A stretch of DNA of 64,000 bases from the NCBI GenBank assembly GCA_022563395.1, contig JADFNM010000001.1:398342-462341 (forward strand), in the 5' to 3' direction. Origin of the DNA: Patescibacteria group bacterium (GTDB taxonomy: Bacteria; Patescibacteriota; Minisyncoccia; Minisyncoccales; UBA10102). The first letter of the stretch is position 1. Each line of letters starts with the position of its first letter. Under the pieces are notes generated by a model. That model was not told the origin of the DNA, did not search any database, and was given only the letters and a program-made list of their open reading frames with translations. A program made the translations under genes and the position numbers. Of the stretch, positions 6,332 to 62,607 are shown piece after piece.

Positions 6332-6340
6332 TGGTATAAT
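6332..6340 (+). promoter_or_regulatory. extended -10 box TGgTATAAT, 6 nt before the ATG (leaderless geometry)
   Basis: The sequence atggtataatgtcgccATG places TATAAT at 6335-6340 and the ATG at 6347. Confidence 0.45.
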
Positions 6341-6346
6341 GTCGCC

Positions 6347-11647: not shown

Positions 11648-11681
11648 TGTTACATTATATCTTATCTTGCCCCTGTGGAAA

Positions 11682-14661: not shown

Positions 14662-14673
14662 TGGTTTAGTATA

Positions 14674-15912
14674 TCAAAGAGAGCCTAGTTGATACAGGGG
14701 CAGCAGGACCGAAGCCAACAATCCCCCCACAATCAATCCTAAAAACACAATAAGGGCTGGCTCAATGATGCTGAGGAATGCTTCCACGGTGCGATCAACC
14801 TCTTTTTGGTAAAAGGAAACAATGTTGGACAGGGTTTTGTCTAGGCTCCCTGATTTTTCTCCCACAAACACCATTTGGGTGAATACGGGAGGAAACTCTG
14901 CGGGGTACTTTTGCAGCACGGTGCTTATTTGGTTTCCCTTTTGTACCTCACTCTTTGCCTCCTCAATAATTTCTGTATACACCGAGCTTCCCACAATACG
15001 CCCGGTGATATCCAGGGCCTGGACAATGGGAAGGCCTCCTGAAATTAAGGTGGAAAGGTTTTCTGCAAAGCGTGAAAGATAAATCATTCGCAAAAAGGAA
15101 TTCAAAAGCGGGACCTTAAGATAAAACCTGCTCAACAACCGTGTTCCCTCAGGAGTGCTTTTCCAGCGAAGGAAAAAGAATACAGCTCCCCCCGTCAATA
15201 AGAGAAAGACCCACCAGAACGCTCGAAACAAAGTGGCTAAAGTAAGAACAAACTGGGTGACGGCAGGAAGTTCCTGGCCCGTTTGCTCCAATACTTTGGT
15301 TAAGTTGGGAATAACAAAAAACATGAGCAAGGCTAACACCGTAAAGGACAGAAACACAATAAAGGCAGGATACACCAAGGCAGAACGAATCTTTGAAACT
15401 AAGTGGTACTCTCGCTCCATGTGGTCAGCTAAATACTCCAGCACAGAAGACAGGGTTCCTGATGCCTCCCCTGACTTTACCATGTTAACGTAGAAGGGGG
15501 AGAAAATATCAGGGTACTTTGATAGGGCTTTTGAAAACAGAGTTCCGCCTTTCACCTCTTCTGACAGGCGAAAGATTTTTTCTTTAAATGTTCTACTCTT
15601 GGTTTGGGAAGCTAGGGTCTGCAAGGCCTCTACCAAAGGTACGCGAGAAACAAACATGACAGATAACTGTCTGGAAAACATCATAATATCTCTCATGGAA
15701 ACCCGCTCAAAAAACCGGATGTTCCGTTCAAAGAGTGGGCGTGCCTCTGCTGCCTCAAGAAACGTGACAAACAGATTATGGGCCGCCAAGAGCGACAAGG
15801 CAGCTTCCCTGGAGGAAGCCTCAATCACGCCAGACTGCGTTTTGCCTTTGTTGTCTTTGCCCTGGTAGTTGAATTTCATCCCGTTAGAGATAAGAAATGT
15901 TCTGCGGAACAT
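14674..15912 (-). CDS. pilC: type IV pilus platform protein (GspF/PilC family)
   Basis: 412 aa with two GspF-type repeats and three TM segments. The likely true start is MKFNYQGKD at 15879. Confidence 0.9.
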   Translation of the reverse strand: MFRRTFLISNGMKFNYQGKDNKGKTQSGVIEASSREAALSLLAAHNLFVTFLEAAEARPLFERNIRFFERVSMRDIMMFSRQLSVMFVSRVPLVEALQTLASQTKSRTFKEKIFRLSEEVKGGTLFSKALSKYPDIFSPFYVNMVKSGEASGTLSSVLEYLADHMEREYHLVSKIRSALVYPAFIVFLSFTVLALLMFFVIPNLTKVLEQTGQELPAVTQFVLTLATLFRAFWWVFLLLTGGAVFFFLRWKSTPEGTRLLSRFYLKVPLLNSFLRMIYLSRFAENLSTLISGGLPIVQALDITGRIVGSSVYTEIIEEAKSEVQKGNQISTVLQKYPAEFPPVFTQMVFVGEKSGSLDKTLSNIVSFYQKEVDRTVEAFLSIIEPALIVFLGLIVGGLLASVLLPLYQLGSL

Positions 15913-17130: not shown

Positions 17131-17508
17131 TTAACCATTTAACAATTCTTTTACCTCCTCTACTACCTGGGTGGGGGTAAAGTGAGCTTTAATCAGGTAG
17201 CGGTCAGCGCCAAGAGAAATTCCTTTTTCAATCTCTTCTTTTTGCCCAAGGTTAGAGAGTACTACAATCTTTGTGTTCCGCAAGTTTTCTTGTTTTTGAG
17301 CGGCTAGAAGCAATTCCCAGCCGTCCACATGAGGAAGCACAATGTCCATGACAATGACCGAAGGGCTCAGCTTAGAAAACAAGGAAAGCGCCCTTTCTCC
17401 AGAATCTGCCACCTGCACCTTAAATCCAGCTTCTGTAAACTTTGTGGTGTAAATATCAATCAGCAAGGGGTCGTCTTCAACGAGTAAGATAGTATCTTTG
17501 GGGGACAT
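17131..17508 (-). CDS. stand-alone response-regulator receiver (CheY/PilH-like)
   Basis: 125 aa with ILLVEDDPLL, VIVMDIVLPHVDG and VVLSNLG. No output domain, and no histidine kinase in the window. Confidence 0.85.
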   Translation of the reverse strand: MSPKDTILLVEDDPLLIDIYTTKFTEAGFKVQVADSGERALSLFSKLSPSVIVMDIVLPHVDGWELLLAAQKQENLRNTKIVVLSNLGQKEEIEKGISLGADRYLIKAHFTPTQVVEEVKELLNG

Positions 17509-17509
17509 A

Positions 17510-19240
17510 TCAGTCTTCGGTCACGCGAATAACCTCCTCTATTGTTGTTATACCATCAATTGCCTTTAACACGCCATCCTGACGAAGCGTGACCATGCCC
17601 TGGCGCACTGCTTCTTTTGCAATGTTTGCTTCAGACGGAGTTTGAAGAACAATGTCTGAAAGCTCGTCGGTCATTGTAAGCACCTCAAAGAGACCAATCC
17701 TACCACTGTATCCTGCGGCTCCACATTCTTTGCATCCTTTGGCAACAAACAAACTCAGGTCTTTTCCTTTGGTTGCCAGGTGCACGCTCACGGATTTTTC
17801 TTTGGCAGCAGGAATCTTTCTGAGTTCTTGCAAGATGAGCTCTTTCATTTCCGTTTTTGGCTTGATGCGTTCCTTGCAATTATCGCACAAGCGTCTCACC
17901 AAACGTTGGGAAAGGGCAATGTTAAGCGTGGTTGGAACCAGGTACTTGTCCACTCCCATGTCCAAGAGACGAGGGATGACGCCAGAAGCATTGTTCGTAT
18001 GCAAGGTGGAAAGCACAATGTGCCCTGTTAAAGCAGCGTGCACAACAAGGGAGGCCGTCTCTTCGTCTCTAACCTCACCTACCATGATAACGTCTGGGTC
18101 TTGGCGCAGAACCTGGCGTAACCCTTGGGCAAAATCGTATTGAATATCGGGCCTAACCTGGGACTGGTTCACGCCTTCCAAAAGATACTCCACGGGGTCT
18201 TCCAAACTCACAATGTTCAAGGATTCCTTGTTAATACTCTGGAGCATGGCATACAGGGTGGTGGTTTTTCCAGAGCCCGTGGGCCCAGTCACCAAAATCA
18301 ACCCAAAGGGGCGTTTCAAAGCCGCTTGTGCTTTCTCTAAACTGGAACCTCCCAAACCAAGCTCGCCAAAACCCTTTAACCCCACTTCAGGGTCTAAAAC
18401 ACGTATGGCAACCTTTTCTCCTAGGGCAGTGGGAAAAGTGGAAACACGAAAGTCTATAGAGCGCTCTCCAATGTTTGCAGAAAATCTCCCATCCTGTGGT
18501 ACTCGCTGCTCATCAATCTTTAAGTTGGAAAGAATCTTAATGTGCGACACCACGGCTTGGTGAACCCGTTTTGGCAAGAATAAAGAGGAGTACAGGTCCC
18601 CCAGCATGCGAAACCTTACTCTGAGTTTGTCTTTGGTGGGTTCAATGTGAATGTCAGAGGCCTTCCCTTCAACCGCGTTTCTCAAGATGACTGCCACCAT
18701 CTTGGTGACCGGGGCCTCCTCCACCAAACGAGCGAGTTTTTGAGCTTGGTCCTTGCCCTTTTCTTCCTTCATCTCTTCTTGGAGTTCTCCTAAGGCCTGG
18801 CTCATATCGTTCTTTTGGTTTTGATAATGGCGCATGACTGCAGCAAACTGAGAAACAGAGATGAGCTGTATCTGAAACGAAAACCCTCCCTGGCGAGACA
18901 GGAAGTTCAGCGCCTCCTTTGCTTTTACGTCCTCCGGGGCTACCATACCAACCTCAACCACTCCTGCCCGCTTAGACAAGGGAACCATGCGATAGTGAGA
19001 TGCCGCATCCTCGGGGATAAGCTCAAGAATCTTTAAGGGAATGTCTTTGGGCTCAACAGATCTCAAAGGAACCTGCAGTCCCTCTGATTTAACGCTAAAC
19101 AAGAGCTCTTCTTCCACAAGCTTCTTTTCCAAGAGTACTTCCTCAACCAACTTTTGGGACCGAGTTGCCTCCTCTTGGACTTGGGTTGCGGCCTCGCTTA
19201 AAAGAAGATTTCTCTGAACAAGGGTTTGAAGAATGTTCAT
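17510..19240 (-). CDS. pilB: type IV pilus assembly ATPase (GspE/PilB family)
   Basis: 576 aa with an N-terminal T2SSE_N-like domain, Walker A (GPTGSGKTTT) and the CxxC..CxxC tetracysteine motif (CDNCK..CKECG). Confidence 0.9.
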   Translation of the reverse strand: MNILQTLVQRNLLLSEAATQVQEEATRSQKLVEEVLLEKKLVEEELLFSVKSEGLQVPLRSVEPKDIPLKILELIPEDAASHYRMVPLSKRAGVVEVGMVAPEDVKAKEALNFLSRQGGFSFQIQLISVSQFAAVMRHYQNQKNDMSQALGELQEEMKEEKGKDQAQKLARLVEEAPVTKMVAVILRNAVEGKASDIHIEPTKDKLRVRFRMLGDLYSSLFLPKRVHQAVVSHIKILSNLKIDEQRVPQDGRFSANIGERSIDFRVSTFPTALGEKVAIRVLDPEVGLKGFGELGLGGSSLEKAQAALKRPFGLILVTGPTGSGKTTTLYAMLQSINKESLNIVSLEDPVEYLLEGVNQSQVRPDIQYDFAQGLRQVLRQDPDVIMVGEVRDEETASLVVHAALTGHIVLSTLHTNNASGVIPRLLDMGVDKYLVPTTLNIALSQRLVRRLCDNCKERIKPKTEMKELILQELRKIPAAKEKSVSVHLATKGKDLSLFVAKGCKECGAAGYSGRIGLFEVLTMTDELSDIVLQTPSEANIAKEAVRQGMVTLRQDGVLKAIDGITTIEEVIRVTED

Positions 19241-19512
19241 TATAGGGGGGGGAGCAATGGGTTGTCTCGACCAACATCCTGGGGAATTTGCGCTTTTGCC
19301 TCTGCCTCATCTAGTTTTTGGAGTATTGGATGGGAGAGAATGGAGGTATCCACCTCAACCCTGAGGGGCTGGAGAAGGATGTCGCCTGTGGGGAAAGGGG
19401 CTGTCACAAAGAATCCCCACCAGATGACAACTGCGGTAATAAAGACCACTACCCCAAGCGCGAGAATGAGGAGGCGTTGAATCTTCTTTTTCTGGAGAAA
19501 CGTTACTGCCAT
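19240..19512 (-). CDS. small membrane protein of the pilus locus (unknown)
   Basis: 90-aa ORF with a single TM (LLILALGVVVFITAVVIWWGFFV). Its stop overlaps the pilB start. Confidence 0.5.
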   Translation of the reverse strand: MAVTFLQKKKIQRLLILALGVVVFITAVVIWWGFFVTAPFPTGDILLQPLRVEVDTSILSHPILQKLDEAEAKAQIPQDVGRDNPLLPPL

Positions 19513-19530: not shown

Positions 19531-20046
19531 CTAGTAGAAATAGGTATGAAGCTGCAAAGTTACATTGAACCTTTCGGTCTCTTGGCTCCCAGAAAGGTTC
19601 AGGGATTGAAGAGAAACCATACGAGAAGCGATATTCAAACGTCCCGTCAGTTCTTTTAAAGCACTCCAGGAACCTACAAGCTCAAGTGTCACAGGAATGG
19701 TGCGTAGCTCTAAGGATTGAGCTTGGCTCTCCACTGCAGCTGAAATGTTGCGCAAGGACATTCCAGAAAGTGCGGAGCTCCGCTGCAAAAAGTCGTAGAG
19801 CGAGGGAAGCTGGGGGCCTAAGGGAAGGGCGGCCTCAACCTTTAAAAGCCCTTCTGCAAACTCCGCAAGGCTTGCCTTAACCTTTATCAAATCTGCAAAG
19901 TAGGTTTCCCGGTTTTCCAGCTCTTGCTGGCGGCCTTTAAGTTCAGACCTCAGCTGCTGGAAGGTCTGATAGTTGGGCCAGGTTAAGAAGATGCCTACGG
20001 CAACTCCTATAAAGAGCAGGATTCCAATGAGAAGGGTGCGGTTCAT
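19531..20046 (-). CDS. pilO: PilO-like pilus assembly protein
   Basis: The start is placed at the internal MNRTLLIGILLFIGVAV (20046), which abuts the pilN stop. TM plus coiled coil (QQLRSELKGRQQELENRETYF). Confidence 0.65.
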   Translation of the reverse strand: MNRTLLIGILLFIGVAVGIFLTWPNYQTFQQLRSELKGRQQELENRETYFADLIKVKASLAEFAEGLLKVEAALPLGPQLPSLYDFLQRSSALSGMSLRNISAAVESQAQSLELRTIPVTLELVGSWSALKELTGRLNIASRMVSLQSLNLSGSQETERFNVTLQLHTYFY

Positions 20047-20047
20047 A

Positions 20048-20572
20048 TTATTGAAAGAATGCGGCTGAAAATTGTATTTCCATTTGAAAGTCAACCCCGC
20101 CCTGTCCCCCAAGCTTAAGATTCGTCAGGGAAATGGAGCCTGGTTCTGACCGTGCTTCAAGCACCACAAGCTGTTCATCTAGGGCAGAGAAGGATTCTGC
20201 AGTTCCCCTAAGCTGCACAGTGTGGCTTTGCACATCAACATTCATTGAAAGAAAGGTGACCTCGGGATGTACCACGTTCTCCAAGAAAGAGAATGCGGGA
20301 AGCACGTCCTTTCGAAGCTCTACCAGTGTTGCAAAATCTTTAAGCCTGGTTCGTGCAACAAACATGTCTTGCTCCAGCTGTGCCTGCTCTGGGGTCTTTT
20401 CTGTTCTCAAGAGTATTTCTGCCTCTTTAATCTTGGTTTGAGTTCTTGATTCCAAGAAAAACAAGAGTACAAATCCTCCCACCGAAAGCACAAAGACACC
20501 AATGGACAAGGCAAAGAACACCCTCATGAACAAAGAGGAAGTTTGAGGCACTTTGGGAATGATTTCTACCAT
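20048..20572 (-). CDS. pilN: PilN-like pilus assembly protein
   Basis: 174 aa with a short cytoplasmic N-terminus, one TM and a periplasmic domain. It sits between pilM and pilO. Confidence 0.6.
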   Translation of the reverse strand: MVEIIPKVPQTSSLFMRVFFALSIGVFVLSVGGFVLLFFLESRTQTKIKEAEILLRTEKTPEQAQLEQDMFVARTRLKDFATLVELRKDVLPAFSFLENVVHPEVTFLSMNVDVQSHTVQLRGTAESFSALDEQLVVLEARSEPGSISLTNLKLGGQGGVDFQMEIQFSAAFFQ

Positions 20573-20578
20573 ATATAT

Positions 20579-21631
20579 TTACTCCAGTCCTCGTAATGCC
20601 ATTCCTACTGCGACGCAGTACGAGGGCCCCATCTCTTTTATTGTATCTTCCAACACAGGAGGATAAAAGACAGAACGAAAAGGATCAACGAATTCTATCT
20701 CTTTCTTCAGGCTCTCTTTTAAGTATTCTCTGAGCCCCGGTAGCATTGCGGACCCTCCTCCGAGAACCACCCGTTGAATTTCCTTTTCTCTGAATTCTTG
20801 GATTGCTCTTTGGATTTCCGTCACCACGGTGTCTATCAGAGGACCTAATATAGTCTTGAGTTCTTTTGACAAAAGTCCTTCGGCTATTTTCTTCTCTTCT
20901 GCTTCTTTTCGGCCAATAGACAAGGATTGCGCAATGCGTTCTGAAAGGTTTCCCCCACCAATATCAATAGACCGTGAAGACTGCAGCACTCCTTTTTTAA
21001 CCACATTAATAGTTGTGGTTTGGGCTCCCATGTCCAGCACCACAAGGGAACCTTCTCCATTTTTCAAAGAAGAGCGGATAAGACCAAAAACTTCTGCCTC
21101 TAGAGTTTGAAGCCGCAGCTTGGCCAACTTTGCTATCTCTTGATACTGATTGATTAGCTCGTTGGGGACTGCCACCATTAAAATCTTAATAGGTTCCTTT
21201 GGCAGACCAAGGCGCTTCTTGTTTAAAATCTGCCAGTCAAAGGTCACTTCAGAAAAGGGAATGGGGATGTGTTTTCTCGCCTCGTACTGAACTGCTTCTG
21301 GCAACTCCTCTTTGGTCATCGGAGGAAGCTCAAAGTGTGTGAAAAAGGAAGAGAAGTCCGGAATGGAGAATACCGCGTTCTTGGTCTCAATCTTTGCTTC
21401 CTGCAAAATGCCGCGAAGGGATCTTGCAATGTCTTTTGAAGAAAGGAGCAGGGAACTCTTTTCTGCTGTTCGAAACGGTTTGTCATACAGCATTTCAGAC
21501 CGCATCTCTCCATAGTTCTTCAAGCTTTTTTTTGCGCCCCACCGAGAAAGCTCCACCACCTTAATGGTTGAAGTTCCGATGTCAATGCCAAGAAAGCTTT
21601 TGGGAATAAATTTGAAAGAACCAAGCTTCAT
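20579..21631 (-). CDS. pilM: PilM, actin-like ATPase of the pilus inner-membrane complex
   Basis: 350 aa with LGIDIGTSTIKVVEL, LDMGAQTTTINVV and VLGGGSAMLPGL (ASKHA fold motifs). Confidence 0.85.
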   Translation of the reverse strand: MKLGSFKFIPKSFLGIDIGTSTIKVVELSRWGAKKSLKNYGEMRSEMLYDKPFRTAEKSSLLLSSKDIARSLRGILQEAKIETKNAVFSIPDFSSFFTHFELPPMTKEELPEAVQYEARKHIPIPFSEVTFDWQILNKKRLGLPKEPIKILMVAVPNELINQYQEIAKLAKLRLQTLEAEVFGLIRSSLKNGEGSLVVLDMGAQTTTINVVKKGVLQSSRSIDIGGGNLSERIAQSLSIGRKEAEEKKIAEGLLSKELKTILGPLIDTVVTEIQRAIQEFREKEIQRVVLGGGSAMLPGLREYLKESLKKEIEFVDPFRSVFYPPVLEDTIKEMGPSYCVAVGMALRGLE

Positions 21632-21802
21632 ATATACTCGCTACAGCTCGTTATTCCTTCTGGAATATACTCCCTGCAACTCGTTATTCCTTCTGGAATA
21701 TACTCCCTGCAACTCGTTATTCCTTCTGGAATATACTCCCTGCAACTCGTTATTCCTTCTGGAATATACTCCCTGCAACTCGTTATTCCTTCTGGAATAT
21801 AG
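21632..21802. repeat. 33-bp tandem repeat x5 (CTCGTTATTCCTTCTGGAATATACTCCCTGCAA) abutting the pilM start codon
   Basis: Unit starts are at 21647, 21680, 21713, 21746 and 21779, with degenerate partial copies at both ends. Each unit contains the inverted repeat TATTCC-TTCT-GGAATA. Confidence 0.95.
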
Positions 21803-21853
21803 TATATCATAAAAAATGCAAACAATCCTGTTATTTCCTGTATTATATAGTAT

Positions 21854-22501
21854 ATGCAAAGAAAACCCAAGTATTATAGGGGGCTATTTCTCTCCTCATG
21901 GCTTCCCCTGGTGTATGATTTTTGGGTGTGGCTTGCCGTGTTGGGAAACACAAAAAAACTCAGAGAAAGCATCTTAGAGTTTGTGCCGCAAAATCCAAAC
22001 GTTCTTATTGATCTTGCAACGGGAACAGGAGAGAACGCCCTGCTTCTTAAACAAAGATTTCCTTACTCCAAGGTTCTTGCCTCAGACCTGTCTCAAGGAA
22101 TGCTCAAGGTGGCAAAAGAAAAAGCAACAAGGCAGGCACGGGAAATTGAGTTCTCTTTTGAAGATGCGACAAAAACTAATTATCCATCAGAAATTGCGGA
22201 CTTTGTTGCAATCTCTTTTGCCTTACACGACCTTCCCGGAGAAAAGAGGGTAGAAGTGATGAAAGAAGCTTTGCGCCTGTTAAAGCCTGGCGGGATATTC
22301 GTAATCTATGAGTACCACCTTCCCAAGAACTTGCTTGTCCGTATTCCCCTCATCATTCAGTTCCTATTAGTAGAAAACCTGGATGCCTGGCGCATGCTAA
22401 AAGAAAACCTTACAGAAAAACTGAAAGAAGCTGGGTTCAAAAACACAAAAAAGAAAACCTATTACAAAGGGTTAGCCCAGATTGTAGTTGGGTCAAAGTA
22501 A
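21854..22501 (+). CDS. class I SAM-dependent methyltransferase (UbiE/COQ5-like)
   Basis: 215 aa with IDLATGTGENA (motif I), ISFALHDLP and LKPGGIFVIYE. Confidence 0.75.
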   Translation: MQRKPKYYRGLFLSSWLPLVYDFWVWLAVLGNTKKLRESILEFVPQNPNVLIDLATGTGENALLLKQRFPYSKVLASDLSQGMLKVAKEKATRQAREIEFSFEDATKTNYPSEIADFVAISFALHDLPGEKRVEVMKEALRLLKPGGIFVIYEYHLPKNLLVRIPLIIQFLLVENLDAWRMLKENLTEKLKEAGFKNTKKKTYYKGLAQIVVGSK

Positions 22502-22597: not shown

Positions 22598-22665
22598 GGC
22601 GGAGGGGGTGAGATTCGCCATATCATTCGATATGGCGCCCTGTCGAATGACAGGGCGAACCTCAC
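22597..22665 (-). ncRNA. twin-hairpin element, copy 1 (candidate structured RNA; T-arm/acceptor-CCA-like flanks)
   Basis: The minus strand reads GTGAGGTTCGCC[CTGTC-ATTC-GACAG]GGCGCC[ATATC-GAAT-GATAT]GGCGAATCTCAC-CCCCTCCG-CCA. A second copy at 31969-32038 has compensatory stem changes. Confidence 0.4.
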
Positions 22666-22910
22666 TTTAATACGTCTCGATATTGCTGTCGAAATAATCT
22701 CTTTCCCTCGGTCGTCTTCAAGAATCGCTCTCTTCTCTGTGCATCGCTCTTCAGGAGGTATGCTTCATATCCTATCAGCTTAAGTGGTCGCAGTGATGTC
22801 GTTGCTCGCACATTTCCGATTTCGTGTTCCTTTGTTCGTCTACGCAAATCGTTCGTAGAACCAGTATAAATCCTCCTATTTCTGAGGCGAAGAAAATATA
22901 CATAGTACAT
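22662..22910 (-). CDS. small GIY-YIG nuclease family protein
   Basis: MYYVYFLRLRNRRIYTGSTNDLRRRTKEH.. carries GIY-YIG, Arg and Glu motifs. The start is trimmed to 22910 because the longer track ORF reads through tRNA-Ser. Confidence 0.8.
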   Translation of the reverse strand: MYYVYFLRLRNRRIYTGSTNDLRRRTKEHEIGNVRATTSLRPLKLIGYEAYLLKSDAQRRERFLKTTEGKRLFRQQYRDVLK

Positions 22911-22913
22911 GTG

Positions 22914-23000
22914 CGGCGGGAGAGGGATTCGAACCCCCGATACCCTTTCAAGTATAGCAGTTTTCAAGACTGCCCCATTCATCCGCTCTGGCATCCCGCC
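22914..23000 (-). tRNA. tRNA-Ser(TGA)
   Basis: Hand fold: acceptor GGCGGGA/TCCCGCC, anticodon arm GCAGT-CTTGAAA-ACTGC, long variable arm, T-loop TTCGAAT. No encoded CCA. Confidence 0.9.
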
Positions 23001-23292: not shown

Positions 23293-25377
23293 ATGCAGCT
23301 AACCACTCCTCTCTCTGAAGTTCCACGCATTGGGCCGGTCTACCAGAAGCGACTGAAAACAATGGGGATCACAACTTGCCGTGATCTTCTTTTTCATTTC
23401 CCCAGAATGTATCACGACCTCTCTACCATCACTCCCATTGGAAAAGCAAAGGAGGGTTTTGAATACTGCTTTCAAGGAACCTTGGGAGAGCTTCAAGAAA
23501 TGAGAACATACAGGAAAAGAATATCTGTTGTAGAGGGGGTACTAAGCGACAAAACAGGGAGCATAAAGGTGGTGTGGTTTAACCAGCCCTATCTCAAAGA
23601 CACCCTGTCTTTAAGACAGGAGGTGTTTCTTGCGGGAAAGGTGGTTCGCGACCAAAATGGTATCCATCTTCAAAGCCCAGCGTATGAGAAAATGAGTAGA
23701 AACCCCATTCACATGGCAAGACTCGTTCCCGTGTACCAAGAAACCAGGGGGGTATCTTCAAAGTGGTTGCGCTTTGTCATTCATATGGTTTTAGACTCTC
23801 TTAAAAACATTCAAGACACACTTCCTTCATCCCTACTAAAAGAACGGGGGTTTCCTTCACTCAAGGATGCCTTGTTTTCTATCCACTTCCCAAACAATCC
23901 AAAAGACGCACAGCTCGCAAGGAAACGCTTTTCCTTTGAAGAACTCTTCTTCATTTCTTTGTTTGTCTTAACAGAACGAAAGAAACTTTCTGAAGTAAAG
24001 GCCCCGGTGGTTGCTTATGCCCCAGATATCATGAAGCGCTTCACCTCAAAACTCTCTTTTGAGTTGACCGACGCACAAAAGAAAGCTGCCTGGCACATCT
24101 TGAAAGATATGGAAAAGCCAAGACCAATGAACAGAATCTTGCAAGGGGATGTGGGTTCTGGGAAAACCGTGGTAGCTGCCATGGCCTCTTTGGCTGCAGT
24201 AAAGGCGGGGTATCAGGCTGTACTTATGGCTCCAACAGAGGTTTTAGCCCAGCAGCACTTCAAGACCGTGGGGGAATCACTGGCACTCTTTCGCATAACC
24301 ATTGGCCTTTTAACCGGAAAGACAGACCGATTCATTTCTCCTAAACTTCCCAATGATTCCATTGAGATCTCACGAAAGAAGCTTTTAAAAAGAGTCAAAG
24401 AAGGAACCGTTGACGTTCTCATCGGCACCCACGCCTTAATTCAAGACAAGGTAAAGTTCAACAACCTTGCCTTGGTTATTATTGACGAACAACACCGCTT
24501 TGGCGTACAGCAAAGAAAAAAGCTTCAACACAGATCACAGCTCATTCCTCACTTTCTTTCCATGACCGCAACCCCCATTCCAAGAACGTTGGCAATGAGC
24601 GTGTATGGGGATTTAGACCCCACGATTATTGACGAGCTTCCCAAGGGAAGAAAGAGGATTGAAACCAAGATTGTGGCGCCAGAAGAACGGGCAAAGGCAT
24701 ACAAGTTCATTGCAAAAGAAGTGAAAAAGGGAAGACAGGTGTTTGTGATTTGTCCTCGCATTGAGAAAGTAGAAGAAGGAGAGAAATCAGAATTGAAGAC
24801 CGTAAAAGAGGAGTATGAAAAGCTCTCAAGGGATGTATTCCCTGGCTTTGAAGTTGCAATGCTCCATGGGAAAATGGGGGCGCCAGAAAAAGAACAAATC
24901 ATGCGGCGCTTTAAAAGAGGGAAAACAGACATTCTTGTTTCAACATCGGTTGTAGAGGTGGGGGTGGATATTCCCAATGCCTCCGTCATGATGATTGAGG
25001 GCGCAGACAGGTTTGGGTTGGCCCAACTCCACCAGTTTCGAGGAAGAGTGGGGAGGTCTCGCTATCAATCATACTGCCTCTTGTTTTCAGAATCCAAAAG
25101 CGCCGCAACAAAACAACGCTTAAAAGCTTTACTTGAATCTGAGAACGGATTTCAACTAGCAGAGAGAGACTTAGAGCTCCGCGGCCCGGGAGACTTTTCT
25201 GGAAACAAGCAATGGGGGCTGCCTGACTTTGCCATGAAAAACTTGGCAAACCTTCCCTTGGTTCAAGAAACTAGGGAGGCAGCAGAAAAGCTTTTAGAAC
25301 AAGACATCTCTCTAAAAAACCACCCCTTACTTAAGAAACGAGTAGAAGAGCTCCGAGAGAAGCTGCACTTGGAGTAA
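23293..25377 (+). CDS. recG: ATP-dependent DNA helicase RecG
   Basis: 694 aa with a wedge domain followed by helicase motifs GDVGSGKT, DEQHRFG and SATPIPRT, then QLHQFRGRVGR. Confidence 0.9.
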   Translation: MQLTTPLSEVPRIGPVYQKRLKTMGITTCRDLLFHFPRMYHDLSTITPIGKAKEGFEYCFQGTLGELQEMRTYRKRISVVEGVLSDKTGSIKVVWFNQPYLKDTLSLRQEVFLAGKVVRDQNGIHLQSPAYEKMSRNPIHMARLVPVYQETRGVSSKWLRFVIHMVLDSLKNIQDTLPSSLLKERGFPSLKDALFSIHFPNNPKDAQLARKRFSFEELFFISLFVLTERKKLSEVKAPVVAYAPDIMKRFTSKLSFELTDAQKKAAWHILKDMEKPRPMNRILQGDVGSGKTVVAAMASLAAVKAGYQAVLMAPTEVLAQQHFKTVGESLALFRITIGLLTGKTDRFISPKLPNDSIEISRKKLLKRVKEGTVDVLIGTHALIQDKVKFNNLALVIIDEQHRFGVQQRKKLQHRSQLIPHFLSMTATPIPRTLAMSVYGDLDPTIIDELPKGRKRIETKIVAPEERAKAYKFIAKEVKKGRQVFVICPRIEKVEEGEKSELKTVKEEYEKLSRDVFPGFEVAMLHGKMGAPEKEQIMRRFKRGKTDILVSTSVVEVGVDIPNASVMMIEGADRFGLAQLHQFRGRVGRSRYQSYCLLFSESKSAATKQRLKALLESENGFQLAERDLELRGPGDFSGNKQWGLPDFAMKNLANLPLVQETREAAEKLLEQDISLKNHPLLKKRVEELREKLHLE

Positions 25378-31329: not shown

Positions 31330-31917
31330 ATGCCTTCGTTTTTTGAAAAGTTAAGAAACAGCATGGGCATTGAAGAGAAAGAATTGGACGAGAAGGAGCT
31401 TAAGGAAGAAGAGCGGCCCAAGCAGAAGTCGCCTCAACAGCAATCCGCCGGCGAGGAGGAAAAGAAAAAGGATACTGAAGAAAAGAAGATACAGGTGAAA
31501 TCCTCAAAGTCCTCCGGAGGCGGACCCGCCTCTGGCGGGAAAGAAGATGTGGCTCCCTCAAAAGAGGAAGCCCCTGACTGGTTTGAGCCAGAAGGTGAGT
31601 TGGCTGTTGATGTATACCAGACGGATGATGAAATCGTTATTCAGTCAACCATTGCAGGGGTGAAGCCAGAGGATCTGGACATTTCCATTGAAAACGACAC
31701 CGTTAGCATTTCAGGGGAGCGAAGGAACGTTGTTGAAGACAAAGGTAAGAACTACTTTTACCAAGAGTGCTTCTGGGGAGCTTTTTTAAGGGAGATTATC
31801 CTGCCAGAAGAGGTAGACGGAGAAAGGGCAGAAGCTGTCATGAAAGACGGGGTATTTACCCTGCGCATTCCAAAGATTGAACGCCAGAAAGTAAAAAAGG
31901 TGAAGGTGAGAGGATAA
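31330..31917 (+). CDS. Hsp20/alpha-crystallin small heat-shock protein with low-complexity N-terminal extension
   Basis: The C-terminus reads LAVDVYQTDDEIVIQSTIAGVKPEDLDISIENDTVSISGER..DGVFTLRIPK. The N-terminal K/E-rich region includes palindromes CCTCCGGAGG and CCCGCCTCTGGCGGG (31511-31539). Confidence 0.85.
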   Translation: MPSFFEKLRNSMGIEEKELDEKELKEEERPKQKSPQQQSAGEEEKKKDTEEKKIQVKSSKSSGGGPASGGKEDVAPSKEEAPDWFEPEGELAVDVYQTDDEIVIQSTIAGVKPEDLDISIENDTVSISGERRNVVEDKGKNYFYQECFWGAFLREIILPEEVDGERAEAVMKDGVFTLRIPKIERQKVKKVKVRG

Positions 31918-31918
31918 A

Positions 31919-31952
31919 GCAAAAGGGGGGTCTGACCCCCCTTTTGCTTTGT
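31919..31952. terminator. bidirectional terminator GCAAAAGGGGGGTC-tga-CCCCCCTTTTGC
   Basis: A perfect long stem directly after the hsp20 stop, with T runs on both strands. Confidence 0.75.
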
Positions 31953-31968
31953 GACCCCCCTTTTGCTT

Positions 31969-32038
31969 TGGTGCGCCCGGGAGGATTCGCCCTATGATAA
32001 ACATAGGGCGCCCCGTGTTCATCACGGGGCGAACCTCA
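31969..32038 (-). ncRNA. twin-hairpin element, copy 2 (candidate structured RNA), 8 nt after tRNA-Leu(TAG)
   Basis: The minus strand reads GAGGTTCGCC[CCGTG-ATGAA-CACGG]GGCGCC[CTATG-TTTAT-CATAG]GGCGAATCCTC-CCGGGCGC-ACCA. Confidence 0.4.
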
Positions 32039-34646: not shown

Positions 34647-35645
34647 ATGAGGAGACACATGGGACTGATGGTTTTCTTGCTTGCCACTGTCTTCTTGATA
34701 GCGGCATGCGTAGAGGACCCGCAAGGACCCAAGGAAGACACCGGAGGAACAGACTCACGAGGACTGCAAGGAGAACCAGGGCCTCAAGGCATACAAGGAG
34801 AACCAGGAACTCAAGGAGTCCAAGGAGAACCAGGGCCTCAGGGCATACAAGGAGAACCAGGAACTCAAGGAGTCCAAGGAGAACCAGGGCCTCAGGGCAT
34901 ACAAGGAGAAGGAGGGGAGCCGGGGCCAAGGGGAGATAAAGGAGACAAAGGAGAGTCTCCAAGCGAAGATGAGCTCATTAAGCTCCTCAACCAGATAGTG
35001 AATCCTCCTATTCCAACCCCAGAACCCTTGGAGGGCTCCTATCAAGCTCCCAATCCTCGTTTCGTGTTTAGCTACACGACAAAAGATGACGAGGAGGAGA
35101 TAGGCGGATTAGACATCTACCTCATCTCAGACCCGGTCTTTGACCACCCTGGATGCCCTGCGCAAGCCGAAGTATTCGGCCAAAGTGCGAGAGGAGATAG
35201 CGTTCGATGCAGGTTTAATCCTTTACTCCTGCTTACGTGGGTCAAAGAATTCTCTCTGGCAAGCGAGCTTCCTGAAGAAGGTATGGAGTGGGGCGTATAC
35301 GCCACTCTCACGCCCTACCAGGAACCGTGGCCTGTGCCAGAAGAAGCACAAGGACCCAAACCCAGATTCCTCGTACAGCTTGAAGCGTTTGGGCAGGAAC
35401 ATTCAGGAAACATCCTGCTCACCGTATTCCCGAAAGGCAAAGAACCCACTCCTCGGTGTCCTGACCAGGCAGATAAAGGGAACATAATAACTGAGGGAGA
35501 AACTGAGTACTATCGTTGTATCGCGTCTCCTGTGGCCACGCTTGCGTGGCTCCAGAAGTTCTCCCTTGTTAAAGATCTCCCCCCTCGCGAGGAATGGGAG
35601 GAGACCTATGCCATCTTCCCTGCGATCTTCCCCTGGGAGACGTAA
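34647..35645 (+). CDS. collagen-triple-helix-repeat lipoprotein with duplicated C-terminal domain
   Basis: Lipobox FLIAAC, about 21 G-X-Y triplets (GLQGEPGPQGIQGEPGTQGVQ..), then two homologous ~95-aa modules (PNPRFVFSY..EPWPVPEE and PKPRFLVQL..IFPWE). Confidence 0.8.
   Translation: MRRHMGLMVFLLATVFLIAACVEDPQGPKEDTGGTDSRGLQGEPGPQGIQGEPGTQGVQGEPGPQGIQGEPGTQGVQGEPGPQGIQGEGGEPGPRGDKGDKGESPSEDELIKLLNQIVNPPIPTPEPLEGSYQAPNPRFVFSYTTKDDEEEIGGLDIYLISDPVFDHPGCPAQAEVFGQSARGDSVRCRFNPLLLLTWVKEFSLASELPEEGMEWGVYATLTPYQEPWPVPEEAQGPKPRFLVQLEAFGQEHSGNILLTVFPKGKEPTPRCPDQADKGNIITEGETEYYRCIASPVATLAWLQKFSLVKDLPPREEWEETYAIFPAIFPWET
34761..34952 (+). repeat. collagen-like G-X-Y coding repeat (54-bp unit x ~3)
   Basis: caaggagaaccagggcctcagggcatacaaggagaaccaggaactcaaggagtc is reiterated. 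Confidence 0.9.
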
Positions 35646-42196: not shown

Positions 42197-42228
42197 CATA
42201 AACCCCTCATTTCCTCTATACTAACCAA

Positions 42229-46327: not shown

Positions 46328-46400
46328 GGGCACGTAGCTCAATGGTTAGAGCACCAAGCTTATACCTTGGCGGTTCCTGGTTCGAGTCCAGGCGTGCCCA
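46328..46400 (+). tRNA. tRNA-Ile(TAT)
   Basis: Acceptor GGGCACG/CGTGCCC, anticodon arm CCAAG-CTTATAC-CTTGG (anticodon UAU), T-loop TTCGAGT. Confidence 0.85.
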
Positions 46401-46413
46401 CTAGTATAATCCT

Positions 46414-48513: not shown

Positions 48514-49080
48514 TCAATATCTCCTTAATGAGATTAAGGATTCCTTAATTTCATTAAGGAAAAATTGCTTTCTATGCAACACCGCAAGGGCAAGTTCGTA
48601 TGCTCCAACAAACACTCCGACAAAGAAGAGGTCTCCCAGTAGAGTATATTTCAAGAAGGGGAGACCCATTGTATAAGAAAGCATAAGACCTTCTAGGGTT
48701 GGGGCGTACAAAGGAGAAAAAGCCCACACGGCAAAGTTGGTGAAGAGATAAAAGAGAAACGATCCTGCCAGGGTTGCCAGTGTTATGGTTCCAAGGTTCT
48801 TTCTGCCTTTGATAAGCAGGCCAAAGATACCATAGAACAGAAAGCTTCCGTACACCACAAGCATTAACTTTACATCATAAAACCCAATGACAAGGTCAGC
48901 CAAAAACATCACGGCCAATGGGAGGACAAGGGCCCACCTGCTTTTTCTGGCAAGATATATGCCGGCAAACAAAGCCAAAGCACCTACCGGAGTAAAGTTT
49001 GGGGGGTGAGGAATCAGGCGCCCTGCCAAAGCAATTCCTAGGGCAGCCAACAAAAATCCAATAAGAAGATGCCGCTTCAT
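48514..49080 (-). CDS. polytopic membrane protein, DUF6580-like putative transporter (family assignment from memory)
   Basis: 188 aa with 5-6 TMs and N-terminal LIPHPPNFTPVGALALFAGIY. The last ~15 codons read through AT palindromes at 48523-48559. Confidence 0.55.
   Translation of the reverse strand: MKRHLLIGFLLAALGIALAGRLIPHPPNFTPVGALALFAGIYLARKSRWALVLPLAVMFLADLVIGFYDVKLMLVVYGSFLFYGIFGLLIKGRKNLGTITLATLAGSFLFYLFTNFAVWAFSPLYAPTLEGLMLSYTMGLPFLKYTLLGDLFFVGVFVGAYELALAVLHRKQFFLNEIKESLISLRRY
48523..48559. repeat. paired AT palindromes CCTTAATGAGATTAAGG-att-CCTTAATTTCATTAAGG
   Basis: They overlap the 3' coding end of ORF 48514-49080. Confidence 0.85.
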
Positions 49081-53585: not shown

Positions 53586-53777
53586 TATACTTGACTCAAA
53601 GCTTACCAACAAGGGCATTGTCCACCGTTGGGGCTTCCTGGCAGTCCCGGGTTGTAATCCAGCTTGAGGGAACCTTTTTGTGAACCCGCAAACCAGTCCC
53701 CTTCTTCAAGCTGTATGTACACGCAATACAACTGGCTTGAACAATTGGTAGTCAATGTATTCACGTTGTCTATCCAG
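53586..53777. repeat. 192-bp segment identical to 14153-14344
   Basis: See 14153-14344. It covers the last 58 codons plus stop of ORF 53603-55081 and 17 nt downstream. Confidence 0.9.
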
Positions 53778-55081
53778 GCATACGAACCTCCCCCTTGAGG
53801 ATCTGTGGGGACGGGATCTAAATACTTGCCATCACCTATACCATTGCAGGATGGAGGATTGGTACAGGGAATCTTTGAAGGAAGAGAGGATCCTGCAACC
53901 TGGGAATACATCTGATCATCCGAATAATCCAGCTCCATTGCAAGGGTAATTTGACGAATGTCAGCCTGACGCCTGGCATCGCGTGTCGTTTCTCTTGCCA
54001 AATTGAGACTCAAATCAGATTGGCTGCGTGCGTCGCGCGTCGTTTCTCCTGCCGAATTGAGACTCCAAAAAAGGGTTGAAAGAATTATGGCAAGGATAAT
54101 CAAAATTCCAAGAATTCCAAGAATTCCAAGAATTCCGATAATAATAAAAGTTGCCTTCTTTCTTCTGGTTGGCGTAAAAACAACCTCTCCTTTTACGGCT
54201 TTTAGATTGCTATACACTAAAAACGCATAAGTCATTGTCAATGGGGTCAAAAACAATCCAATAACAATACGACTAATTTCCTCCCCGAAAGGAATCTTCA
54301 GAAAGCTAAAAATAAGAATTGGAACTAAAGAAATTATAAAAGATATTACGCCGATAAAAAAGAAACGCCAAAATACACTACCCCATTTACCTTTTACATA
54401 CTCACGACTCTTTAATAGAGCGTTCATTCCTTTTAGGTCTTCTGCAATTAAAACAAACACTGCCAAACTAAACCAGACAGCAAAAATAATTCCGGGCACA
54501 ATCAAAAGAAAAAATCCACCAAGAGTAATAAATCCTACTAACAAAGAAACCCACCAGTAGGAAAATATTTTGTGCCATCCCCGCCGATACGACTCCATTA
54601 CTCCAATCCTCTCTTGACTATCTTTCACAGCATACAGTAACGCTATTTGCCCCCATACTTGGCTAATAAAAGTAATTACAAAAAATAAAATAGCCAAAAG
54701 AATAAGCAAGCCAATGCCACCAGCAGCAAATTTTGAAAAAAGTAGACTAGTACCCAAAAGTCCACCGCCGGCAGAAATAGCGAGGACCGCTATTGATACT
54801 AACATCGGAATTACCATCACACCCAAAAATGTGCCAAGCCTTTGTTTATATATAGTCCATGCTTGGCCAAAAATCGCTGTAGCACCCGGTAAAGAAGAAA
54901 TGGTTTGCGCTGGCGGCGGGGCTGGTTGCGATTGGTTAGTAGGATTTTCTATAAGAGAAAAAGCCTCATCAATATCTTGCATCTGCCAACCATTAGCCAT
55001 TAGAGAACTTTTAATTTGTTCTTTGTTCGCTCCTTGTTGTAGCTGTTGCTTGATATAATCAAGCAATTGTTGATTAATCAT
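53603..55081 (-). CDS. chimeric polytopic membrane protein with C-terminal type IV pilin head domain (no prepilin cleavage site)
   Basis: 492 aa. The order is an N-terminal helical domain (MINQQLLDYIKQQLQQGANKEQIKSSLMANGW), about 7 TMs, duplicated ETTRDAR(S/R)Q linkers, then a ~125-aa domain colinear with pilin 14170-14661. Confidence 0.8.
   Translation of the reverse strand: MINQQLLDYIKQQLQQGANKEQIKSSLMANGWQMQDIDEAFSLIENPTNQSQPAPPPAQTISSLPGATAIFGQAWTIYKQRLGTFLGVMVIPMLVSIAVLAISAGGGLLGTSLLFSKFAAGGIGLLILLAILFFVITFISQVWGQIALLYAVKDSQERIGVMESYRRGWHKIFSYWWVSLLVGFITLGGFFLLIVPGIIFAVWFSLAVFVLIAEDLKGMNALLKSREYVKGKWGSVFWRFFFIGVISFIISLVPILIFSFLKIPFGEEISRIVIGLFLTPLTMTYAFLVYSNLKAVKGEVVFTPTRRKKATFIIIGILGILGILGILIILAIILSTLFWSLNSAGETTRDARSQSDLSLNLARETTRDARRQADIRQITLAMELDYSDDQMYSQVAGSSLPSKIPCTNPPSCNGIGDGKYLDPVPTDPQGGGSYAWIDNVNTLTTNCSSQLYCVYIQLEEGDWFAGSQKGSLKLDYNPGLPGSPNGGQCPCW
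54104..54139. repeat. 9-bp tandem repeat AATTCCAAG x3 (+1 partial) encoding (GIL)n in the last TM helix
   Basis: aattccaag aattccaag aattccaag aattccgat. Any length change would stay in frame. Confidence 0.85.
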
Positions 55082-60299: not shown

Positions 60300-60380
60300 C
60301 CTTAGAACTTAAAGGAAAACAGGTATTCTGCTCAGAAGTATCCGCAAGAAAGCGAAATAGCAATATGCTACAATAAATCA

Positions 60381-61217
60381 ATGAATAAGAAGTTTGAAGA
60401 GATAAAAAAGAAAGTTGGGATTCCTTATTTTGAGGATGAAAACTTTTTACTGTTCAACCAAGATGCCATTGCATCCTTAGAAAAACTAACCTCTCGGATA
60501 TTTGATCTAACTGTAACAAGTCCTCCTTATAATATAGGTAAAGAGTATGAGAAGATTAGGGGGCTAAAAAACTATATAGCTTGGTCTCATCAATGGATAA
60601 AAGCTGTCTATGAATGTACTAAACCCCAGGGGTCTTTCTGGCTTAATCTTGGATACCTTGATATGAATAATAAGGCAAAAGCTATCCCCATTATATATCT
60701 TTTGTGGGAGCACATTCCTTTCTACTTAATTCAAGAAGTCATCTGGCACTATGAAGCAGGGGTTACTGCAAAAAAGTTCCTTGCTCCAAGGAATGAAAAA
60801 TTCCTCTGGTACGTAAAAGACGCCAGATCCTATACTTTCAATCTTGATAATATTAGAGATCCAAACGTTAAATATCCCAACCAAAAAAAGAATGGGAAAT
60901 TACGATGTAATCCGTTTGGAAAAAATCCTGGAGACGTTTGGGATTTTCCAAAAGTTACTTCTGGAGACAAGCGTAGTTCCAAAGAACGCACAAAACATCC
61001 TGCTCAATTCCCAATCGCAATTATAGACCGTATCCTTAAAGCATCTTCTAACAAAGGGGATTTTGTACTAGATCCCTTTATTGGTTCAGGTACTACCGCT
61101 GAATGTGCGTTAAGAAACGGACGAAAAGTGGTTGGTTTTGAAATAAAAAAAAGCTATTGCGATATCGCTATAGATAGATATAAGTCTGCAAAAGATAAGC
61201 TCAAAAAAACTATCTAG
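60381..61217 (+). CDS. DNA methyltransferase, beta-class N4-cytosine/N6-adenine (SPPY)
   Basis: DLTVTSPPYNIGKEY (motif IV) precedes FVLDPFIGSGTTAECA (motif I). Confidence 0.85.
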   Translation: MNKKFEEIKKKVGIPYFEDENFLLFNQDAIASLEKLTSRIFDLTVTSPPYNIGKEYEKIRGLKNYIAWSHQWIKAVYECTKPQGSFWLNLGYLDMNNKAKAIPIIYLLWEHIPFYLIQEVIWHYEAGVTAKKFLAPRNEKFLWYVKDARSYTFNLDNIRDPNVKYPNQKKNGKLRCNPFGKNPGDVWDFPKVTSGDKRSSKERTKHPAQFPIAIIDRILKASSNKGDFVLDPFIGSGTTAECALRNGRKVVGFEIKKSYCDIAIDRYKSAKDKLKKTI

Positions 61218-61792
61218 AGTAAGTTTAAAAGCTTAAACTTCATAGCTTCTACGCTGAGCCTAGATTGCTGCCCTGTAGGGGCTTTTTGTGCTATCCAATC
61301 AGAATGCTCAATCCATCCAAATCTTATCTTCGTTATTTGAGGTAACTCTTGCTGTACTTTCTTGTCAAAATTTATGACGAGATAATATCCTTCTTTGGAC
61401 TTTTGAGTACCTTCTGTTGCCTCTTGACCATAACTCCGGTTTCCATACACTCCACTATTACTTGAAGATGTCTTAATCTCAAAAGAATAATCATCATTAG
61501 AAAAATATACCATATCCTTTTCCTTTTTAGATTTTCCAATTCGCCAAGCACTAGGATCTTTTTTTTGCAAATTATAGGCAATAAGAATATGCAAAAAATT
61601 GCCTATCATCTGAGGAGTAAGATTAATGTCCTTCCCTATCTGAAGAACTCCTCCTATCTTGCTCTTAAAAATCTGCTCCCACGATTTAAGACAAACTTCA
61701 AGAATGCCTTCCTTATCTAAAGGATGCTCTTCAACTAATTTTTCAGTAATAGCTAACCAATCCTTTGGCTGTTTTTTAGTATATGGATTCAC
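61214..61792 (-). CDS. putative type II restriction endonuclease (PD-(D/E)XK-like)
   Basis: 192 aa, convergent with the MTase and overlapping it by 4 nt. It carries a candidate D..E-x-K motif (DDYSFEIKTS). No family name assigned. Confidence 0.5.
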   Translation of the reverse strand: MNPYTKKQPKDWLAITEKLVEEHPLDKEGILEVCLKSWEQIFKSKIGGVLQIGKDINLTPQMIGNFLHILIAYNLQKKDPSAWRIGKSKKEKDMVYFSNDDYSFEIKTSSSNSGVYGNRSYGQEATEGTQKSKEGYYLVINFDKKVQQELPQITKIRFGWIEHSDWIAQKAPTGQQSRLSVEAMKFKLLNLL

Positions 61793-62566: not shown

Positions 62567-62576
62567 ATCCCAATTC

Positions 62577-62607
62577 TACCAAAAAACCGCCTGTCTGGCA
62601 ATTCTTT
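62577..62607 (-). terminator. conserved hairpin junction element, copy 3
   Basis: The minus strand reads AAAGAATTGCC-agaca-GGCGGTTTTTTGGTA, 10 nt upstream of ATG 62566. Confidence 0.5.

Follow-up and report, generated by a model that had tools for sequence, protein, structure and literature searches.

A 33-bp minisatellite at the head of a type IV pilus assembly operon in a Patescibacteria genome, probably amplified from the pilM leader

Intergenic minisatellites, or variable-number tandem repeats (VNTRs), are found in bacteria, examples being the MIRU-VNTR loci of Mycobacterium tuberculosis and MLVA loci. In Haemophilus influenzae, a heptamer repeat of hmw1A is transcribed in the 5′ UTR, where it takes part in RNA structure, and expression is inversely proportional to repeat number (PMC12721329). 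The 7-bp tracts of hmw1A and hmw2A lie between the promoter and the start codon of a gene for a surface structure (PMC12721329; PMC8262952). In the divergent fimbrial promoter of hifA and hifB in the same organism, a TA-repeat is placed between the -35 and -10 elements and alters their spacing (review PMC3899988).

Here we describe an array of tandem 33-bp units that directly precedes pilM, the first gene of a pilus assembly operon, in a 64-kb stretch of DNA from a Patescibacteria bacterium (referred to here as the window; all coordinates are positions within it). Type IV pili are central to host attachment and DNA uptake in CPR/Patescibacteria, and to our knowledge almost nothing is known of their regulation in these organisms. 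As an object, the array appears to be an intergenic minisatellite (VNTR) formed by lineage-specific tandem amplification of the pilM leader, with units of more than 10 bp arranged head to tail and without spacers. It resembles the VNTR and MIRU loci in having head-to-tail units of tens of base pairs in an intergenic position, with identical interior units and a diverged edge unit, in breaking or possibly collapsing short-read assemblies, and in having a unit length that is a multiple of three and an open reading frame (ORF) that ends on the start of the next gene. It differs from these families in being a single locus rather than a dispersed one, its unit recurring neither elsewhere in the window nor in the collections scanned, and from MIRUs in lying in a divergent promoter region rather than between cistrons, its unit being, on our reading, the gene's own 5′ leader. 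A divergent locus and a unit found nowhere else place the array outside the MIRU-like intercistronic repeats.

As a possible mechanism, the closest parallel is the hmw1A repeat of H. influenzae. In both cases the tract lies between a promoter, here a putative one, and the start codon of a gene for a surface structure, and by this analogy a transcribed 5′ UTR and a graded effect of length, with no frameshift, are predicted for the array. In Haemophilus, 7-bp units are present in at least 11 copies and form one long hairpin with a G-rich arm; here the units measure 33 bp, number at least five and are each predicted to form a local hairpin. RNase III processing and the effect on expression are features of the Haemophilus system. 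The hifA/hifB repeat shares with it a location in the divergent promoter region of pilus or fimbrial genes, but the array follows the -10 box and does not reach into the methyltransferase promoter on the other side. Iteron and operator arrays likewise consist of regularly spaced identical sites with dyad symmetry; unlike them, the array has no cognate regulator nearby and no other sites in the 64 kb, and its DNA dyad is not conserved in the relative L031. By position, between a -10-like box and the ATG of the first type IV pilus operon gene, the array is placed as a contingency locus would be; its unit of 33 bp exceeds the 1–9 bp of the short-unit repeats of such loci.

Tandem Repeats Finder, applied to the window, places the array at 21632-21801 (period 33, 5.2 copies, 97% matches, no indels, score 319) and reports no other strong non-coding tandem array within the 64 kb. 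A search with the unit returns five copies. Adjoining pilM is unit 1 (21632-21664; minus strand TCCAGAAGGAATAACGAGCTGTAGCGAGTATAT), the ATG-proximal and ancestral-like copy, which differs from the other four at three positions, 21640, 21643 and 21646. Units 2–5 (21665-21796; minus strand TCCAGAAGGAATAACGAGTTGCAGGGAGTATAT), the recently amplified part, are 100% identical to each other over their full length. The 5-bp word TATAT closes every unit and, as seen in the sequence and in alignment A2, also precedes the first (21797-21801, minus strand); this extra word accounts for the '0.2 copy' reported by the program, and the units are thus framed by microhomology. The periodic run in the window measures 155 nt. 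Five 16-bp dyads (TATTCCTTCTGGAATA) lie within 21652-21799, starting at 21652, 21685, 21718, 21751 and 21784. With up to one mismatch allowed, TATTCC-N4-GGAATA occurs at five sites, all of them in the array, against 0.16 expected in shuffles.

Starting at the base next to the pilM ATG (21631), the array accounts for 170 bp of the 222-bp gap that separates pilM from the divergent methyltransferase gene. The initial annotation, which had described five tandem 33-bp units that abut the pilM start, fill most of the divergent region and each carry TATTCC-N4-GGAATA and a TATATT word, therefore holds on all these points. It had also set a CRISPR array aside for want of spacers; we agree, the units being contiguous and without unique spacers.

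The operon lies on the minus strand and begins with pilM (20579-21631; PF11104 PilM_2, E=1.4e-44). The N-terminus MKLGSFKF is kept in more than 20 close PilM homologues that were read, and the ATG at 21631 is therefore the true start, with the array beginning at the next base. Following pilM are a pilN-like gene (20048-20572), pilO (19531-20112), an ORF of 90 aa (19240-19512), the pilB ATPase gene (17510-19240) and a gene for a receiver-only response regulator (17131-17508), all on the minus strand; pilT and pilC also lie further downstream. The nearest named homologues of PilM are from Patescibacteria, with Candidatus Wildermuthbacteria at about 60% identity, and other relatives reach 80–89%. 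Because all four pilM SNPs in strain L004 are synonymous, the gene is still in use and remains under purifying selection with the array in place. Divergent from pilM is a UbiE/COQ5-type SAM methyltransferase gene (21854-22501, plus strand) with a -10-like box of its own, TGTTATTAT (21838-21846, plus strand), which is located 7 nt 5′ of its ATG, outside the array, and is conserved in the relative L012.

Related species provide the reference against which the array can be read. In L031 and L032, from Tara samples (PilM 84% identical), a single 33-nt element occupies the same place, the sequence reading ...TGCTACACTATAT, then TCTAGGAGGAATAACGAGCAGGGGCGAGTATAT, then the ATG. Exactly these 33 nt are absent from L012/L013 and L028/L033/L034 (PilM 87–88% identical; alignment A2, with L012 and L028), in which the homologue of window positions 21802-21853 runs directly into the ATG (...TATGGTACGCTATGT and ...GAGGTACACTATAT, each followed by ATG). 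The element is also absent from the more distant L014, L015, L016 and L027, where TGGTAYRAT and 4 nt directly precede the conserved N-terminal codons of pilM; L015 has ATA in place of the ATG.

The L031 copy matches the ATG-proximal unit of the window at 28 of 33 positions and has in common with it C19 and C25, two of the three bases specific to that unit. On these grounds the proximal unit is ancestral-like. The four distal units, being identical to each other, arose recently when a duplicate that had diverged slightly was amplified. Microhomology for duplication, and equally for precise loss, is provided by the word TATAT at either end. The distribution of the element is at odds with the ranking by PilM identity, as it is absent in relatives at 88–89% and present in the relative at 84%, which implies either loss in some lineages or a gene tree unlike the PilM ranking. 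No similar array lies 5′ of pilM in the loci of nine relatives, and no repeated N-terminal extension is present among the longer PilM calls.

Upstream of the array is a putative promoter, the extended -10-like box TGATATACT (21801-21809, minus strand; alignments A1 and A2). It corresponds to TGGTATAAT, GGTACACT and GGTACGCT, located 4 nt before the pilM ATG in element-free relatives, and to TGCTACACT in L031, and its position upstream of the element is conserved in all relatives. In the window, 165 bp of array lie between the box and the pilM ATG. The sole sigma-70-type match found by a consensus scan, and as such a match to consensus only, also lies upstream of the array (21806-21834, minus strand; -35 ATAACA at 21834-21829, a 17-nt spacer and -10 TATGAT at 21811-21806); the scan calls no such promoter inside the array. 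The initial annotation had proposed that a change in copy number would move or multiply promoter or operator elements. The promoter part of this proposal is reasonable, since the array parts the box from the ATG by 165 bp; the operator part gains no support.

Boxes at start codons are common in this genome. A strong -10-like hexamer ends 4–9 nt before the start in 11 of the 42 genes with an upstream gap of at least 50 bp, against a background of 3% (p=3e-8), often with a TG extension and most often 6 nt before the start codon (examples at 6332-6346, 42214-42228 and 60366-60380, and on the minus strand at 11648-11662, 14662-14676 and 62567-62581). There is thus a tendency in this organism for promoters to lie immediately at the start codon. 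Shine-Dalgarno-like motifs, found for five of 61 genes, are no more frequent than the 10.7% background. These patterns in the sequence suggest widespread leaderless mRNAs in this Patescibacteria genome. In element-free relatives the box stands only 4 nt from the ATG, a spacing that leaderless starts usually match at the least or exceed, and the proposed start of pilM transcription is uncertain for this reason. The GGGAG of the consensus units was considered as a Shine-Dalgarno site and rejected, as such motifs are not enriched here and the proximal unit has GCGAG instead.

We favour, with moderate confidence, an origin of the array as a species-specific minisatellite, by tandem amplification of the short 5′ leader of pilM itself, and its likely transcription as that leader. 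The starting point was the single 33-nt element that a related species carries between the -10-like box plus ATAT and the pilM ATG. In the species of the window this element was duplicated, with TATAT at both ends as the microhomology, and the distal copy gained three changes before being amplified to at least four identical copies. The most likely transcription start would lie a short way past the conserved box, near 21793-21797 (minus strand); the pilM-pilN-pilO-pilB operon would then carry the whole array as a leader of some 165 nt, to which every unit contributes a 6-bp hairpin. The most economical reading of the locus is that the 33-nt element is the pilM 5′ leader and that the array comprises five tandem copies of it, putatively transcribed from the conserved box. 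Such a leader would gain or lose 33 nt at a time by slipped-strand mispairing or unequal recombination, and any effect on expression would be graded, acting through leader length, hairpins and mRNA stability or processing, with no on/off switch of frame. Internal transcription starts may occur at the junction hexamers TATATT (minus strand) and TATACT (plus strand).

In the minus-strand RNA, each unit can form the hairpin UAUUCC-AGAA-GGAAUA, with a 6-bp stem and a predicted energy of -5.2 kcal/mol in its native flanks, or -7.3 kcal/mol in a constructed 21-mer that has two extra pairs. The predicted fold of the 191-nt leader, at -58.3 kcal/mol, is far more stable than that of shuffles (-33.5 kcal/mol, z=-7.6), which any repeat of this kind would be expected to show. 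L031 has TATTCT as the left arm of the dyad, which breaks the DNA palindrome but still lets the RNA hairpin form by means of a G.U pair (-3.0 kcal/mol predicted); this single, one-sided change is weak support for an RNA rather than a DNA reading of the dyad. No match to Rfam 15 at gathering score besides tRNAs was found in the window, and none at E≤1 in 21400-22000. A CsrA-type decoy RNA, suggested by the two GGA motifs per unit, was set aside because the GGA lies in the stem rather than in the loop and Rfam gives no match.

The proximal unit is predicted to keep the start codon itself open. A stem GAGC(U)/(A)GCUU, formed by this unit with codons 2–3 of pilM, is predicted in the window and in L031 alike and leaves the AUG in a loop of 17–19 nt, of 17 nt in the window. 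With the real proximal unit, the AUG is predicted to be unpaired with a probability of 0.70-0.74, which falls to 0.35 when a consensus unit is substituted; of the eight combinations that the three bases allow, the observed one gives the highest predicted openness of the AUG, and only 3% of random variants with three substitutions are predicted to be as open. According to the folding model, the proximal ancestral-like unit alone would contact the start region, leaving the AUG unpaired. For leaders of 0–8 units the predicted accessibility is flat, at 0.65-0.75, and folding therefore predicts no effect of copy number on initiation itself.

The array is not an artefact of one assembly, because contigs of six other samples, with an identical PilM or methyltransferase protein, carry it or end inside it. 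Outside the array, these contigs are 99.8–100% identical to the window. Two MEGAHIT k141 contigs (ERZ27267515 and ERZ27267519) span the region with two units, namely unit 1 and one consensus unit. SPAdes and Logan contigs stop within the array, which in one scaffold is interrupted by a gap of Ns; four samples, comprising two SPAdes assemblies, one Logan assembly and the N-gapped scaffold, have at least three units, and L004 directly shows unit 1 and two consensus units. The periodic sequence at the broken contig ends measures 55–88 nt for SPAdes (assumed k=55) and 30 nt for Logan (assumed k=31), the lengths expected of an unresolved loop, and at least three units are therefore present in those samples. 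A search for a further assembly that spans the array, by way of the pilN-like protein, gave no new contig.

The periodic run of the two-unit form is 56 nt, and collapse at low k (29 or 39) would leave the same. The two-unit contigs lie on two SNP haplotypes, each of which has at least three units in other assemblies: that of L001 (20365C, 23783G and 24429T) is common to L002 and L008, and that of L003 (21149G and 23023A) to L004 and L007. Either the assembler collapsed both haplotypes, or the array contracts and expands quickly. The apparent copy numbers of two, at least three and five are confounded with the assembler used, and assembler collapse explains the two-unit contigs equally well as true polymorphism does. 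Five units may be a lower bound, because the 155-nt periodic run of the window is within the range expected for collapse at k=127-141. In practice, the array causes short-read assemblies to break, or perhaps to collapse, at precisely the point where the pilus operon begins. Two strains, L007 and L010, show a further feature in the 5′ half of recG (23376-24461), where they differ by about 100 substitutions (roughly 9%, over 1.1 kb); they are otherwise near-identical to the window (<0.1% divergence), and the recG stretch resembles a recombination import.

The interpretation of the array as a candidate switch, as put forward in the initial annotation, is plausible in outline. In its fullest form, which we offer only tentatively, a hypermutable minisatellite built from a complete 5′ UTR would set type IV pilus assembly, as a copy-number rheostat or as a switch for bet-hedging at the population level, in an episymbiotic CPR bacterium largely without Shine-Dalgarno-led initiation; two as against at least three units would then reflect real rapid turnover rather than collapse. 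If copy number truly varies within populations, the array would represent, in an uncultured lineage, a contingency locus whose units are unusual in size, and if it does not, simply a tolerated minisatellite. The locus and its relatives also provide a series of states at one promoter–start junction, in which the leader is absent, present as one copy of 33 nt or amplified, usable for learning how leaders work in a genome without a Shine-Dalgarno signal and with many boxes at start codons.

A selectively neutral minisatellite, that is, a tolerated product of slippage without effect on pilus expression, in which the proximal unit alone matters, would account for a predicted AUG accessibility that is independent of copy number and for the identity of the interior units next to a diverged edge unit, as slippage dynamics expects; moreover, each relative has gained small insertions of its own in the intergenic region. 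Repeat DNA is scarce in small CPR genomes, however, and the array is the only strong non-coding one in 64 kb. The addition of 132 nt of structured leader is also unlikely to be wholly without effect on the fate of the mRNA, and we regard neutrality as doubtful.

The pilM/methyltransferase junction gathers small insertions in each lineage. In L012 (PilM 88%), an insertion of about 100 bp (at about 680-830) interrupts the 5′ end of the methyltransferase gene, which is called from a new start; it carries two palindromes, GGGCCGAGC...GCTCGGCC and GCCAAAACTCAAGCAGTTGAGTTTTGGC. Different palindromic inserts are present in the same intergenic region of L028. In L014 (1470-1523), L015, L016 (565-620) and L027 (265-320), three close GGTATRAT boxes lie 5′ of pilM, the last of which is overlapped by a conserved mini-ORF of 4–6 codons (ATG TTT TTG GTA ...), and two of the modules of box, 4 nt and ATG look like a duplication.

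Owing to its dyad, the unit had been taken to offer an operator typical of dimeric DNA-binding proteins. Each 16-bp dyad would then bind a dimeric transcription factor, and five sites at a spacing of 33 bp would repress or activate pilM, the methyltransferase gene or both, with copy number setting occupancy. The dyad is a perfect 6-N4-6 in five of five units, the spacing is close to three helical turns, and all three substitutions of unit 1 fall outside the dyad, though this has a chance of about 24%. Against this, the 64 kb hold no further dyad site at up to one mismatch, and at two mismatches the six additional sites, against 2.7 expected, are within the shuffle range and mostly in genes. 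The element is absent in L012, L014-L016, L027 and L028, several close relatives among them, and in the single-copy homologue of L031 the DNA dyad is imperfect (TATTCT...GGAATA). Whole units are identical, without a conservation signal specific to the site, and this identity reflects recent duplication rather than selection on the dyad. The flanking genes (pilM/N/O/B and those for the receiver-only response regulator, the methyltransferase and the GIY-YIG protein) include no DNA-binding regulator. Apart from its symmetry, the dyad finds no support as an operator, and we consider an operator array improbable.

Little credence is also due to the units as multiplied promoter modules, in which the junction hexamers TATATT, directed to pilM, and TATACT, directed to the methyltransferase gene, would act as weak -10 boxes and give more starts and more transcription with more units. 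Both hexamers match TATAAT at five of six positions, with A2 and T6, and boxes of like quality precede many starts here, including GAGTATAAT before the gene at 61214-61792. The consensus scan nevertheless calls none inside the array, and the hexamers have neither a TG extension nor a -35 element at 16–18 nt. The junction nearest the ATG, moreover, gives no usable box, and pilM would still be translated from a leader.

A minus-strand ORF, running from 21870 or 21810 to 21628 and encoding the repeat peptide IPEGITSCREY, crosses the array. An upstream ORF with MIRU-like translational coupling, in which the 11-codon unit would keep coupling at any copy number, is very improbable: no unit interrupts the ORF, the last codon, TGA, shares bases with the pilM ATG (ATGA) and the unit length is a multiple of three, but the ATG that might serve as a start, at 21810, falls within the predicted -10 region and would not be transcribed, the TTG start at 21870 is inside the methyltransferase gene, two of three frames open across 11 codons are unremarkable, the peptide has no significant Pfam match (one GATA_AreA at E=6e-4, below the cut-off) and the region that holds the array is divergent, not intercistronic. 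A protein-coding repeat was rejected as well; the array has ORFs in several frames, the 80-aa minus-strand ORF, when scanned, gave no significant Pfam match, and the genes on either side are fully explained. As for a replication origin with iterons, the cumulative GC skew is essentially monotonic through the region, with no turning point.

Searches for a source of the unit covered several collections. Exact scans of GTDB genomes (TATTCCAGAAGGAATAACGAG), JGI metagenomes (TTCCAGAAGGAATAACGAG) and viral contigs (TATTCCAGAAGGAATAACGAG and GGAATAACGAGTTGCAGGGAG) gave chance matches or none, each being a pattern that the diverged L031 version escapes. A blastn search with three units against phages and plasmids returned no match. 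Derivation of the unit from the adjacent promoter or another part of the window was rejected, as local alignments score no better than shuffles.

Some further features of the window are recorded here. The longest GIY-YIG ORF (22662-22994, minus strand) overlaps tRNA-Ser(UGA) (22913-23000, minus strand); its Pfam match begins at residue 29, and the Met at residue 28 puts a start at 22913, the last base of the tRNA, so that the gene probably starts directly at the end of tRNA-Ser. A tRNA-Ile(UAU) is present at 46328-46401. Within the ORF at 34647-35645 (plus strand) is a coding tandem repeat (34760-34910) with a period of 27/54 and a score of 281, which on inspection by eye resembles the Gly-X-Y triplets of collagen (GVQGEPGPQGIQGEPGT...). 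Smaller repeats, perfect or near-perfect, comprise 3.7 copies of AATTCCAAG at 54104-54136, inside the ORF at 53603-55081, two copies of a 19-bp unit at 31933-31970, downstream of a gene that ends at 31917, and two copies of a 20-bp unit at 48522-48560, which looks palindrome-like by eye.
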